Positions 18,525 through 25,864 are shown, counted from the stretch's first letter. The stretch: DNA of 64,000 bases from an uncultured Alphaproteobacteria bacterium (GCA_964369315.1 CAYJEJ010000003.1:60528-124527), one strand, 5' to 3'. The notes: generated by a model not told the origin, from the letters alone. Numbers and translations are program-made.

Positions 18525-18601
18525 GGCGGAGTAGCTCAGCTGGTTAGAGCAACGGAATCATAATCCGTGTGTCGGGGGTTCAAGTCCCTCCTCCGCTACC
18601 A
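18525..18601 (+). tRNA. tRNA with CAT anticodon (Met; a lysidine-modified Ile2 cannot be excluded)
   Basis: Acceptor GGCGGAG/CTCCGCT, anticodon loop ATCATAA, T-loop TTCAAGT, encoded CCA. Confidence 0.85.
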
Positions 18602-18689
18602 ATAATTTCGAATTATCAAAGTTTTAATGAGATTTTATGCATGTTAAGAGCATAAGTTTCTGTTTGTTATAAGCAAATGATGTTATGTT

Positions 18690-19799
18690 TTATTTTTCTA
18701 AGTGCTTTAAGTAAATAATATTAATTTCGTTTTTTGTTCCAAGCCTAAGTGGAACGCCGAATGTTCCCACTCCTTCCGATATATAAATGTCCATATTCCC
18801 TAGTTTATATCGACCGCTCGAATATTCAAAAAAAGCTTTACTAAACAGGGTAATTGGCCACATCTGTCCACCACCATGTGTATGACCAGAAATCATTAGA
18901 TTAAACCCTGTCTTGTTTGCATATTTTGCACCATATGGTGCGTGTTGGATTAAAATGGATGGTTTTTTCTCATCCAATGAAATTGTCGAGAGGAAATCAT
19001 TCAAATAAATGTCATTAGGGCTTTTATGAACACCAACTGAATCTTTGTCTGAATCTAAGTAATCTGTTCCCACAAACTGCACTCCTTCAATTTCTATTTG
19101 AGTGTTTTCTAGGTGTATGAAGCCAAGCTCTCTGATAAGGTTTTTGATTTCTGGATAACAAACGTAAGTTTCATGATTGCCTTCAGTAAAGATGACTTTT
19201 CCTTTAAATTTCGATAAAGTTTCTTTCACATTTTTTTGTAACCTATAGTTATCTTCAAACAAATCGCCATTTAAAATAACAATGTCTGGATTATGTTTAT
19301 TTGTGATTTCAATAACTTTTTTTAAATATTTGTTTGTTTGAAAATGACCCAAGTGGATGTCTGGTAAATGAGCAATAACAAGCTCTTTTTTTAGATTTGG
19401 CATCTTTACATCAATTTTTGATATTGTTAACTTTTGACCATTATGCCAAGAAACAGCAGTTAAAATAATGGCGATTAGAAGTGAAATACTAATAGGGTGT
19501 GGTACAGGAACACTTAATCCCTTTAGGATAAATGTTACATAAATCAAAACCCCAAAGAATGCTTGCAACATAAACAATACTGCCACAAAAACGTAAGCAT
19601 TAGTAAACCAAGAACCAACTTCAAAGTTTTTTTTCAGCCCAAACATGGCTAAAAACACCACTAAAACGCTCAAATAGGCGATGGATATGGCAAATTTTCC
19701 AAAAAAAGAGGCTTTTATCATGTGCCCAATAATAATTGGTGTGATGAAAAAAGATGACATGATAGTAATCACAAATGCTATGAGTAAGATTTTTTCCAC
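18690..19799 (-). CDS. membrane-anchored metallophosphoesterase (calcineurin-like)
   Basis: The N-terminal ~120 aa are hydrophobic with several predicted TM helices. They are followed by the DIHLGH, GDLFED, GNHE and GHTHGG metallophosphoesterase motifs. Confidence 0.8.
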   Translation of the reverse strand: MEKILLIAFVITIMSSFFITPIIIGHMIKASFFGKFAISIAYLSVLVVFLAMFGLKKNFEVGSWFTNAYVFVAVLFMLQAFFGVLIYVTFILKGLSVPVPHPISISLLIAIILTAVSWHNGQKLTISKIDVKMPNLKKELVIAHLPDIHLGHFQTNKYLKKVIEITNKHNPDIVILNGDLFEDNYRLQKNVKETLSKFKGKVIFTEGNHETYVCYPEIKNLIRELGFIHLENTQIEIEGVQFVGTDYLDSDKDSVGVHKSPNDIYLNDFLSTISLDEKKPSILIQHAPYGAKYANKTGFNLMISGHTHGGGQMWPITLFSKAFFEYSSGRYKLGNMDIYISEGVGTFGVPLRLGTKNEINIIYLKHLEK

Positions 19800-19886
19800 C
19801 CTAATTTCCCCTGTTTTTTTATAAGAATGATTAAACCTCTGTGTTTAAAAAATCCCAAGAATTTAGTCCTAAATTTTGATTTTTTG

Positions 19887-24500: not shown

Positions 24501-25694
24501 TGGATTCAAAACATTTATTAACTCTTCATAGTCATTAAGTATAGCTTCATCTGATGTATCGAACAGGCAAAAATGAATGTTATTTGTAATTTTTAGAGTT
24601 GGGGACTGCCTTTTAGTTGATTTATGGTCAGATAGGTTTATATCCTCTAAAAATGAAAAATGCCTAGTAATATCCGAAATAATAGGCTGTAAAACTGTTA
24701 AGATTGTTTTTTCGTCATCATTTAAGTAAACAATATGGTCTTTAACTGAGCGGATTTTAGAAAATTTTTGATTATCATTATCCTTGTTATATTCTTGTAC
24801 TATATATTCAATTGCCTTTTTATTTATAAAAACACGACTTTTTTCAATAACAATAGAAAACAAATCATTTTGTTTTTCGATTTTTATTGGTAAATAAAAA
24901 ACAGGATAAATTCTTTTTTCAAAATGGATGTCACAAAAATAAAGATAAAAATCTTTTTTTTCAGTTAATTGTTTATTTTCAAATATTTCGAATATTTCAT
25001 AGAACAAATCATACAACATAAAATCTTCAAAAAAATCATGTAACTTTTCTTTGAAAATTGAAATGTTTAAAAGCTCAAGTAAAGCAAGTTTAAAATTATC
25101 TATTTCTTCATTTATAAAAAATGATGCTAGGTGTTCATTCAAGTCTTCTCTAATATTGCCCAATAATAGATTTAATAAATCATTTTCAATTGTAAATGTC
25201 GTATCTTGTTGTAATGCTTTATCTAAATTACTAGAAAGTGGTCGAATGATTTTTTGTAATAATTCTTCTCTAATGTTTTCTATGACCTGTTCGAAGAAAG
25301 AATCATAGTCATCTATATGGTTCGTGCGAATACTTACTATATTGGCTAAGTATGATATTACGAGGTTTTCTAGAGCTGTCTCATCTATTGAATTTATGAT
25401 TTCTGTTATAAGACTTTTTAAATTAGGTTTCAGATTTAATTTGTGCTGACCTTTTTTAATCTCAAATTCAACGAAAGGTTCATTATTGTTTATCAAATTT
25501 TTTAAAACAAATTCTTGAAATTTCTCATATTTGGCTAAATTAATGCCTGACAAATAACCATTGTTATCTCTCAGACGGATGAAACGTTTAGGTATTGATT
25601 GACGATGGAATCCAGTTTCAAGAAAATCAGAGTAATATCTCATCAATTCTTTAAAAAATACTTTTTCTCCCTCTCTTAAACCTGCGTGAACCAT
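21513..25694 (-). CDS. SF1 (Upf1/AAA_11-AAA_12-like) helicase fused to a C-terminal Vsr/DUF559-like endonuclease domain
   Basis: Walker A GPPGTGKSHT, a gap of more than 450 aa, then VIIDEASQ, VLGDTRQ, LRKHFRG, TFDSCQGEERD and RLNVGFSRAKE. The C-terminus YRCDFF...IIIEYDGFKEH...REKILEGYGCQFIRI matches the Vsr/DUF559 pattern. Confidence 0.8.
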   Translation of the reverse strand: MVHAGLREGEKVFFKELMRYYSDFLETGFHRQSIPKRFIRLRDNNGYLSGINLAKYEKFQEFVLKNLINNNEPFVEFEIKKGQHKLNLKPNLKSLITEIINSIDETALENLVISYLANIVSIRTNHIDDYDSFFEQVIENIREELLQKIIRPLSSNLDKALQQDTTFTIENDLLNLLLGNIREDLNEHLASFFINEEIDNFKLALLELLNISIFKEKLHDFFEDFMLYDLFYEIFEIFENKQLTEKKDFYLYFCDIHFEKRIYPVFYLPIKIEKQNDLFSIVIEKSRVFINKKAIEYIVQEYNKDNDNQKFSKIRSVKDHIVYLNDDEKTILTVLQPIISDITRHFSFLEDINLSDHKSTKRQSPTLKITNNIHFCLFDTSDEAILNDYEELINVLNPENNPLSLAFVDFLKSFILEDPISRRKEIETDWEQKNISERLVYDSPVPLNAEQRKIITALNEKDCKCIAVQGPPGTGKSHTITAIVFDMIMKGKSVLILSDKTEALDVVQDKINDTCNKVRGAENFSNPILRLDKPNFSKIFSHTSISKIRNHYICSEELEDINSKICKEKKELINKIEQTINYYDKINIKELNNFIKLEKTIEQKIGEQNIDGINLISPILPNIKSFFEFLINLHDSFDEKVLNVFIQYLNNQLSSWNDKNLKETIDLFVSICSWYDKYRLHHHLDIMLKMEEQPLLEIRSIVKQYNLLSKKFFKFLYKSQVVALEQRLNDIFKLEKHLNLSQEAPLIIETLVAIDEIIDLANKQNFPKKEFMEFYDFFTTNNDSSYIDFLSKISDTFPIPKLGVPEINILKNLGIDLSFVATKDRESIKSLLKQTCLVDEYCKKKTEYKEIFSSIPDMNYLNYSQQISKLHTLLMISSIDDKVLDFYENKRSTSTTLKNIISKRQKFPRVEFDNIKETFPCIIAGIRNYSEYIPLKEGLFDLVIIDEASQVSLAQAFPAILRAKKIIVLGDTRQFSNVKTSAASKIISNSYLDKLIISFKDNISKDTLQLERMKQLDIKTSVLDFFSFIANYSIMLRKHFRGYREIISFSSKYFYDGQLQAIKIRGKPIDDVLKFTVLQHDEKLETPEDNNTNPFEAEFIVQELERLVSEKSSTSVGVITPFVNQQKFISNVVRKSKFAEDIYLKLKLKIMTFDSCQGEERDIIFYSMTASPVSDKTNYIFSANIEDSNDDVKKIRLQRLNVGFSRAKECMHFVLSKPINEFSGSIRTALNFYENQLLQAKELPSKEDVDPSSPMEQKVLLWIQDAQFYQKNREFFSIQAQFPIGDYLKQLDHRYNHPRYRCDFFLQYRNKNQSNNIIIEYDGFKEHFTNLSEVNHFNYEFYYKKSDIEREKILEGYGCQFIRINRFNLGKNPSDTISKKLENIIKKTNKDYF

Positions 25695-25790
25695 TCTTAA
25701 TTCTTTTACTTGGAACTATATTGAAACTGAGATAAAAAAAGCACCTTATCAGTTGAAGTCTACCATAAAGGTAGTAATTTAATAAAATCG

Positions 25791-25864
25791 TGGAGGCCGA
25801 GATCGGAATCGAACCAACGTACAAGGATTTGCAGTCCTCTGCATAACCACTCTGCCACCCGGCC
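25791..25864 (-). tRNA. tRNA-Cys (anticodon GCA)
   Basis: The reverse complement reads GGCCGGGTGGCAGAG...GACTGCAAATCC...GGTTCGATTCCGATCTCGGCCTCCA. Anticodon loop CTGCAAA, encoded CCA. Confidence 0.9.

Follow-up and report, generated by a model that had tools for sequence, protein, structure and literature searches.

We describe here a block of three accessory genes, foremost among them a gene for a large helicase-nuclease protein, that lies between two transfer RNA (tRNA) genes in an uncultured Alphaproteobacteria bacterium. The stretch analysed ('the window') comprises 64,000 nucleotides (nt) of one contig (GCA_964369315.1, CAYJEJ010000003.1:60528-124527), with positions counted from its first letter. 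An initial annotation of this DNA had proposed that the block is a horizontally acquired module, and possibly an undescribed immunity system built from a helicase-nuclease and an acetyltransferase. The block is bounded on one side by an elongator-type tRNA-Met(CAT) gene on the plus strand (18525-18601; Rfam RF00005, 66.3 bits), and on the other by a tRNA-Cys(GCA) gene on the minus strand (25791-25864; Rfam, 57.7 bits); ARAGORN and Rfam agree on both, and their 3' ends face each other, towards the block. Between them, all on the minus strand, lie open reading frames (ORFs) for the helicase-nuclease (1393 residues; 21513-25694; AAA_11/AAA_12), for a GNAT fusion protein with a PD-(D/E)xK-like C-terminal part (485 residues; 19887-21344; PF00583), and for a membrane calcineurin-like metallophosphoesterase of YaeI/COG1408-like type (369 residues; 18690-19799; PF00149). 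The gap from helicase to GNAT fusion is 168 nt and that from GNAT fusion to phosphoesterase 87 nt; these are the only three non-nested ORFs of at least 80 residues in the block, and none encodes a recombinase. The tRNA bracket, the three ORFs and their spacing are reproduced just as first described, as is an AT-rich dip: over 19-26 kb the G+C content (GC) is 0.27-0.33, whereas dnaE and tolC/murE have 0.35-0.41. The domain calls made at that stage also hold for the helicase, the GNAT domain and the membrane Metallophos domain, the nuclease half of the helicase being only probable, as its Pfam match is sub-threshold.

Pfam recognises AAA_11 (E 5e-18) and AAA_12 (E 3e-22) in the helicase protein, and its closest sequences in the PDB are Upf1, IGHMBP2 and NAM7. 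The Upf1-like superfamily 1 (SF1) core spans residues 446-1216 (22047-24359, minus strand), its two RecA-like halves being separated by an insertion of ~330 residues; the Walker A (GPPGTGK476SH), IIDE947ASQ (DE946-947) and RLNVGFSRAK motifs are intact, and invariant in an alignment of 26 family sequences. Judged by these motifs, the 1393-residue protein is an intact Upf1-like SF1 helicase. Ahead of the core sits an N-terminal domain (residues 1-445; 24360-25694, minus strand) that is conserved in the family, with 21 residues invariant across 66 sequences. It has no Pfam match, and its AlphaFold2 (AF2) model, with a predicted local distance difference test (pLDDT) score of 87.6 and a predicted template-modelling (pTM) score of 0.74, finds no significant fold in the PDB (best Foldseek E 0.05, TM ≤0.16).

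At the other end of the protein, residues 1217-1393 (21516-22046, minus strand) are predicted to form a Vsr/MTES_1575-like endonuclease domain of the PD-(D/E)xK superfamily. The C-terminus matches PF18741 (MTES_1575) with E 4e-4 and 20.8 bits, below the cut-off of 38.2, and of 26 relatives 12 match PF18741 weakly and 2 match DUF559. D1303, E1320-Y-D1322-G1323 and H1327, all within the last ~180 residues, are invariant in the 26-sequence alignment, and several homologues carry the JGI annotation 'very-short-patch-repair endonuclease'; taken together, a Vsr/MTES_1575-type endonuclease at the C-terminus is probable. Most relatives also end in a Top1-type zinc ribbon, which the window protein lacks. 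In its closest homologue (L003, 60% identity) the ribbon is a separate 98-residue ORF directly downstream (4882-5178), and no remnant of a ribbon is found in the 168-nt gap that follows the window helicase.

The 'AT-rich block' is mainly the helicase gene, since both the per-gene GC and the tetranucleotide deviation are concentrated there. With a host GC of ~37%, and a mean of 0.378 (sd 0.037) for the other ORFs, the helicase gene has a GC of 0.289, the minimum of the 50 window ORFs compared; its GC at first and second codon positions (GC1 and GC2) is low, as it is at the third (GC3). The GNAT fusion stands at 0.324 and the phosphoesterase at 0.329, and values of 0.31-0.34 are reached by several other window genes too. 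In tetranucleotide usage, normalised for base composition and set against size-matched control windows, the helicase gene is strongly deviant, its distance (z = 5.8) exceeding all 194 controls and its correlation lying at z = -6.6. The GNAT fusion is intermediate (distance z 1.2, correlation under all 216 of its controls), and the phosphoesterase is not deviant (distance z 1.2, correlation z = -0.5). The compositional anomaly seen at the outset is therefore extreme for the helicase and partial for the GNAT fusion, but does not extend to the phosphoesterase, which looks native. Elsewhere in the window, a 315-residue ORF (8891-9838) is the GC-richest gene, with a GC of 0.472 and a GC3 of 0.570 (window mean GC3 0.336); it is a compositional outlier opposite in direction to the helicase.

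A search with the helicase protein gave 1983 matches, of which the best 120 were considered. All 120 are full length (1381-1712 residues) at 36-60% identity, and their sources include Alphaproteobacteria, many members of the candidate phyla radiation (CPR/Patescibacteria), Elusimicrobia, Thermodesulfobacteriota, Chloroflexota and an Aenigmarchaeota archaeon. We compared the window with nine other loci that carry a homologue (L001-L005 and L174-L177). In all nine, with host GC running from 35% to 60%, the GC of the helicase gene is below that of its flanks; the difference amounts to 4-11 points for eight of them (0.379 vs 0.473, 0.435 vs 0.538 and 0.359 vs 0.464, for example) and 1.6 points in L176. 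The low GC of the window helicase matches this pattern.

The company that these homologues keep is that of mobile elements and defence systems. In an alphaproteobacterial metagenome-assembled genome (MAG; L002, 46% identity) the homologue lies inside a bona fide tRNA-fMet integrative island of ~14.1 kb (700-14904), whose borders are the full tRNA (14828-14904) and a 52-nt stretch (700-751) that repeats its 3' half; a tyrosine integrase lies next to this repeat, and besides the homologue the island holds an AEP primase and a DUF4236 protein. At L001 (50% identity) the homologue adjoins VirB/type IV secretion system (T4SS) genes and, again, a DUF4236 gene, and a mobilizable plasmid of Priestia megaterium (L174) carries a homologue near umuC/YolD-type damage-repair genes. 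Seven homologue neighbourhoods were scanned for defence genes. The homologue at L004 (44% identity) has, 3.5 kb away, a complete Iet system of an AAA and an S8 protease protein, both full length (PADLOC IetS E 0, IetA 5e-150), and three full-length members in IMG/VR contigs (L175-L177) have among their neighbours the M (E 2.5e-234) and S (E 7e-81) subunits of a type I restriction-modification (R-M) system, HmaB/HmaC (E ~1e-125), a NOV_C protein, a defence-type (DRT) reverse transcriptase, HEPN_AbiU2, a serine recombinase, a terminase and a tail-sheath protein; mREase_II is also found beside helicase homologues. The family member of L177, a viral-collection contig, is flanked (1874-16241) by ORFs of 1045, 924 and 1143 residues. 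By size, these are probably the Hma components (HmaB, HmaC and NOV_C) detected in the pooled L175-L177 neighbours, and the L177 helicase gene would therefore lie inside or beside an Hma system.

The only recurrent partner of the helicase homologues is the DUF4236 protein, in two loci. It is ~360 residues long and directly adjoins the helicase in both L001 (12526-13593) and L002 (12600-13706), where PADLOC does not recognise it and it resembles none of the window genes; it is possible that this is a clade-specific partner of the alphaproteobacteria-like homologues. Relatives of the GNAT fusion or of the phosphoesterase are found in none of the nine neighbourhoods. Given the low GC relative to the flanks, the mobile-element and defence neighbours and the absence of GNAT or phosphoesterase relatives, the profile of the family is that of a self-contained, horizontally mobile gene living in defence islands.

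How, then, does this family stand to the defence systems already described? The single-gene type II Mokosh system (MkoC) joins a COG1112/Upf1-like helicase to a PLD nuclease, and in Mokosh neither the ATP-binding site nor the nuclease site is dispensable for defence (Millman et al. 2022, bioRxiv 10.1101/2022.05.11.491447). The window protein is likewise a single large protein in which an Upf1-like SF1 helicase is joined to a (predicted) nuclease, and its core matches PADLOC MkoC (E 2.9e-42) and MkoA (E ~1e-42). Its nuclease, however, is C-terminal and Vsr/MTES_1575-like rather than PLD: no PLD family matches the whole protein at E ≤0.01 or the C-terminal 195 residues at E ≤10, where MTES_1575 is the sole Pfam match. 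Moreover, the best stretch covers only positions 669-938 of the 1136 in the MkoC model, and both the 445-residue N-terminal domain and the 330-residue insertion are without counterpart in the Mokosh matches. Hhe (a DUF4011 helicase) and the 'anti-phage protein ProA', annotated in NCBIfam as single-gene anti-phage proteins, are also very large SF1 Upf1-like helicases with a similar core, but the window protein scores 106.4 bits against Hhe (NF042953, cut-off 2000) and 140.4 bits, for the helicase core only, against ProA (NF058533, cut-off 1500); these profiles are 400-500 residues longer, and DUF4011 is found neither in the window helicase nor among the families listed for 26 relatives.

The top PADLOC match is the candidate PDC-S37 (PDLC05009; 146.7 bits), whose model length of 1550 is near the 1400-1570 residues of the family, which aligns almost collinearly (query 930-1214, model 928-1194) and which all 26 relatives match. 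The alignment is nevertheless confined to the RecA2 half and a short Walker A stretch, and the score is ten-fold under what a true member of a 1550-position model would give; no published text on PDC-S37 came up in the literature searched. Nhi, Hna and HmaA are solitary helicase-nuclease defence proteins in which the helicase is the proposed sensor and the nuclease the effector (PMC11232893). As in the window protein, where the nuclease is predicted, one polypeptide holds a helicase motor and a PD-(D/E)xK-type nuclease, and in those proteins this suffices for defence. Hna and HmaA differ in being SF2 helicases, and Nhi in being a DUF2075 SF1 helicase of ~610 residues with an N-terminal nuclease, unlike the C-terminal one here; the PADLOC Nhi model does not match the window helicase and matches 7 of 26 relatives weakly (E ≥1e-7). 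Finally, MTES_1575 is a Vsr-family restriction endonuclease (REase) domain, known from a giant, conflict-associated protein in which it is fused to an SF1 helicase (Anantharaman et al. 2013, PMC3710099). The predicted architecture here is of that kind, without the HEPN, transglutaminase and wHTH/DUF3320 domains, none of which Pfam detects in the window helicase.

By analogy, the window helicase may work like a type II Mokosh or Nhi/Hna-class protein, yet it fails membership of Mokosh, Hhe, ProA and Nhi. No PADLOC or NCBIfam defence model searched matches it over more than the helicase core, and the literature searched does not describe this family.

A defence role is not the only one that can be envisaged, and the helicase-nuclease might instead serve in the maintenance, replication or repair of mobile elements (processing replication intermediates or R-loops, for instance), the window copy being a relic. 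Repair and RNA-quality-control proteins also contain Upf1-like and Vsr-like domains, and one homologue does share its island with an integrase and an AEP primase, while others lie near T4SS genes and near the umuC/YolD-type genes of a plasmid. Saying this, the helicase keeps no fixed place with respect to replication or transfer modules in these elements, it is found as a lone chromosomal gene beside Iet, R-M, Hma and DRT systems, and none of 50,697 deposited phage genomes holds a homologue at E ≤1e-20; we consider a role of this kind unlikely, and continue to favour the helicase-nuclease as a candidate defence gene.

The GNAT fusion presents a different picture. Its first 130 residues (20955-21344, minus strand) are a GNAT acetyltransferase domain (PF00583, 50.5 bits vs a cut-off of 20.7; PDB 1y9w, E 2e-10) with an acetyl-CoA motif, RKQGFG, at residues 76-81, and residues 136-485 (19890-20939, minus strand) form a PD-(D/E)xK-like domain with a beta-rich tail. 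The full-length fusion has no homologue in 5.8 billion clusters, barring itself and one GNAT-only match. For residues 136-485 an exhaustive HMMER search of 1.84 billion cluster representatives found 11 relatives, all of them standalone proteins of 259-318 residues, one from a Holosporales MAG. E221, P247-D248-F249, E261, R321 and K329 are invariant in their alignment, which is a PD-(D/E)xK-like signature, with the third motif reading E-C-T/V and the conserved K329 sitting in the next helix; the predicted order (fragment numbering) is helix 77-96, strands 100-129 and 161-178, and helix 181-203. The top Foldseek matches of the AF2 model (pLDDT 78.5) are mostly PD-(D/E)xK nucleases (McrC, N.BspD6I, Hjc, Cdn1 and DUF2726), all at E ≥0.02 and none significant. 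One standalone relative has CdiA/CdiI on one side and a type I R-M system on the other (L168-170), another follows ligA among housekeeping genes (L171), and two are on short contigs; no helicase homologue is near in any of these four contexts. A link between the GNAT fusion and the helicase is unsupported, as the fusion is unique to this genome and its standalone relatives are never beside the helicase. It is a rare orphan accessory gene that would be independent of the helicase, and is probably also foreign.

The phosphoesterase exceeds the Metallophos cut-off comfortably (PF00149, 54.7 bits vs 21.5), and has DIH, GNHE and GHTH motifs behind roughly four N-terminal hydrophobic segments (residues 1-122). 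It misses the NCBIfam equivalog cut-offs for both YaeI (67.6 vs 188) and LpxG (53 vs 350), and on its sequence belongs to the Metallophos superfamily only, as neither a YaeI nor an LpxG equivalog. The best homologues are 67, 51 and 49% identical, the rest ≤36%. In L173 (GCA_964370705.1, overall GC 0.326; region 1402-3345), a tRNA-Met(CAT) identical to the window tRNA-Met at 73 of 77 positions is followed, ~770 nt further downstream, by the 67% orthologue, with a 222-residue ORF in between; an HD protein, RibD_C and two small GNATs are found nearby, and there is no helicase. The orientation of this orthologue relative to tRNA-Met is opposite to that in the window, and a local inversion would therefore have taken place in one lineage. 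The native composition, together with this linkage to tRNA-Met without a helicase, leads us to see the phosphoesterase as probably a lineage gene of the tRNA-Met neighbourhood, outside the helicase module.

These data bear directly on the idea of one immunity operon, gained as a unit at the tRNA sites, to which the helicase-nuclease and the GNAT fusion would belong and possibly the phosphoesterase too. The genes are indeed co-directional, with gaps of only 168 and 87 nt, and no terminator-like site is predicted in either gap, although the scan counts are at or below shuffle expectation and are uninformative. The tetranucleotide correlation of the GNAT fusion is also anomalous, it too has a nuclease-like domain, and standalone relatives of that domain can be flanked by CdiA/CdiI and type I R-M genes. 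Against this, neither partner has a relative in the nine helicase-homologue neighbourhoods, the fusion is found only in this genome, the four contexts of its C-terminal family lack a helicase, and the phosphoesterase is compositionally native and occurs without a helicase at L173. Co-occurrence of helicase-nuclease and GNAT-fusion homologues as neighbours was found neither way round, which speaks against the two-gene (or three-gene) system of the initial annotation, and we give a single operon little credence. The horizontally acquired module fares better in part: the helicase is compositionally foreign, and its patchily distributed family is found on tRNA-targeting islands, on a plasmid and in contigs of a viral collection; the GNAT fusion is intermediate, but the phosphoesterase is native.

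As to the history of the locus, two of the usual marks of an island are present, namely a boundary tRNA with its 3' end facing the insert and, for the helicase, a deviant composition. No integrase is found in the block and none remains at the locus. Likewise, no copy of either tRNA 3' end is found anywhere in the window, even when three mismatches are allowed, and there is no relevant repeat family; the L002 island, which shows such a repeat, provides a positive control for this search. In both respects the initial annotation is confirmed. In ~100 alphaproteobacterial loci proS-lolE-lolD abut dnaE, directly upstream. In the window proS-lolE-lolD are at 42795-46058 (lolD at 42795-43493), and lolD and dnaE are separated by 24.4 kb (18404-42795), a mostly housekeeping stretch that holds, besides the block, tolC, DUF2497, a Mur ligase, an alphaproteobacterial permuted transfer-messenger RNA (tmRNA; 30572-30904 by Rfam, 30594-30930 by ARAGORN), pdhABC, miaA and trxB. 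The permuted tmRNA marks the host as an alphaproteobacterium, of ~37% GC. Because lolD and dnaE are so far apart, the block sits at a rearranged junction and is not a simple insertion into conserved synteny. Scans of GTDB genomes and metagenomes for DnaE found only proteins of at most ~52% identity in different synteny, with no tolC, murE or block genes nearby, and a metagenome scan for TolC gave no match; these scans seed on exact 8-residue peptides, and closer relatives may be missed.

Two further features of the window may be recorded here. The 5' part of the tolC ORF contains two tandem 29-nt copies (26034-26098), 90% identical and with a 36-nt spacing, which also form an imperfect inverted repeat. 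The minus strand carries, at 9883-13415, a run of three adjacent genes, one matching HydF (tetramer, dimer and GTPase domains) and the other two radical-SAM/BATS proteins of HydE/HydG-like type. They are [FeFe]-hydrogenase maturases and, in a low-GC alphaproteobacterium, point to an anaerobic or hydrogen-producing lifestyle.

That all three genes are vertically inherited lineage genes, AT-rich through a Lys/Asn/Ile-rich bias or low expression and bracketed by tRNAs through coincidence, is highly improbable: the missing integrase and attachment (att) repeat, the lineage-gene behaviour of the phosphoesterase, the GC of 0.31-0.34 in other window genes and the low GC1 and GC2 of the helicase alongside its GC3 would fit, but the base-composition-normalised tetranucleotide deviation of the helicase is above all controls, its nearest homologues (60-44% identity) are in unrelated contexts and on mobile elements, and the spread over bacterial phyla and archaea at 37-40% identity ill fits vertical descent.

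Synthesising these findings, we lean towards a reading of the block as a composite, in which a mobile, single-gene helicase-nuclease defence candidate stands next to two unrelated neighbours. The helicase-nuclease would be a horizontally acquired, self-sufficient single protein of a widespread, unnamed family that appears to behave like a mobile defence gene; the GNAT-nuclease-like fusion would be an independent orphan accessory gene, and the membrane phosphoesterase a lineage gene linked to tRNA-Met. The block would have come to lie at the rearranged junction beside dnaE, with any integration machinery since lost. As to mechanism, and by analogy with type II Mokosh, Nhi, Hna and HmaA, we speculate that the N-terminal domain senses or gates, that the ATP-driven Upf1-like motor then loads on the single-stranded nucleic acid of an invader (replication or transcription intermediates, for example), and that the tethered Vsr-like endonuclease cuts. 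The helicase has intact catalytic motifs, its family is mobile throughout and keeps the company of defence islands, and it is reasonable to regard the helicase-nuclease family as a testable immune candidate.

Several observations pull the other way. PADLOC and NCBIfam defence models match the window protein and its relatives in the helicase core only (in PADLOC the best are PDC-S37, MkoA, MkoC and Hhe, which score 73-147 bits; this holds for all 26 relatives as for the window protein), and the nuclease assignment of the C-terminus, below the Pfam threshold, is probable rather than proven. The evidence from defence neighbours comes from only seven scanned neighbourhoods, and the window itself has no known defence gene beside the block, no integrase and no att repeat. 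The relatives retrieved are distant (at most ~52% DnaE identity), which limits any case for absence of the helicase elsewhere, and pattern-based locus searches can miss relatives. Lastly, all three genes run in one direction, the gaps between them are short and no terminator is predicted there, so that they may still be co-transcribed.

More tentatively, we suggest that the helicase could represent an unnamed single-gene immune family spread across bacterial phyla and archaea, in which an Upf1-like motor and a Vsr-type endonuclease would be joined to a new 445-residue N-terminal sensor fold and, mostly, to a Top1 zinc ribbon, and which the PADLOC and NCBIfam defence models searched would lack; the adjoining orphan GNAT-nuclease fusion might then be a lineage-specific second conflict gene. 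The fusion of GNAT to a PD-(D/E)xK-like domain is a rare architecture, which nothing as yet ties to the helicase. More generally, tRNA-bracketed AT-rich blocks can be composites, and adjacency of genes alone is no proof of a system.

The helicase family pairs a Mokosh-type Upf1-like motor with what is probably a Vsr-type, instead of a PLD, nuclease, and its N-terminal domain, without a match among solved structures, is a natural candidate for the sensor of infection. With at least 120 clusters of full-length homologues, reaching into CPR bacteria and archaea, the family would, if confirmed as immunity, be a widespread addition to the helicase-nuclease class of single-protein defences.

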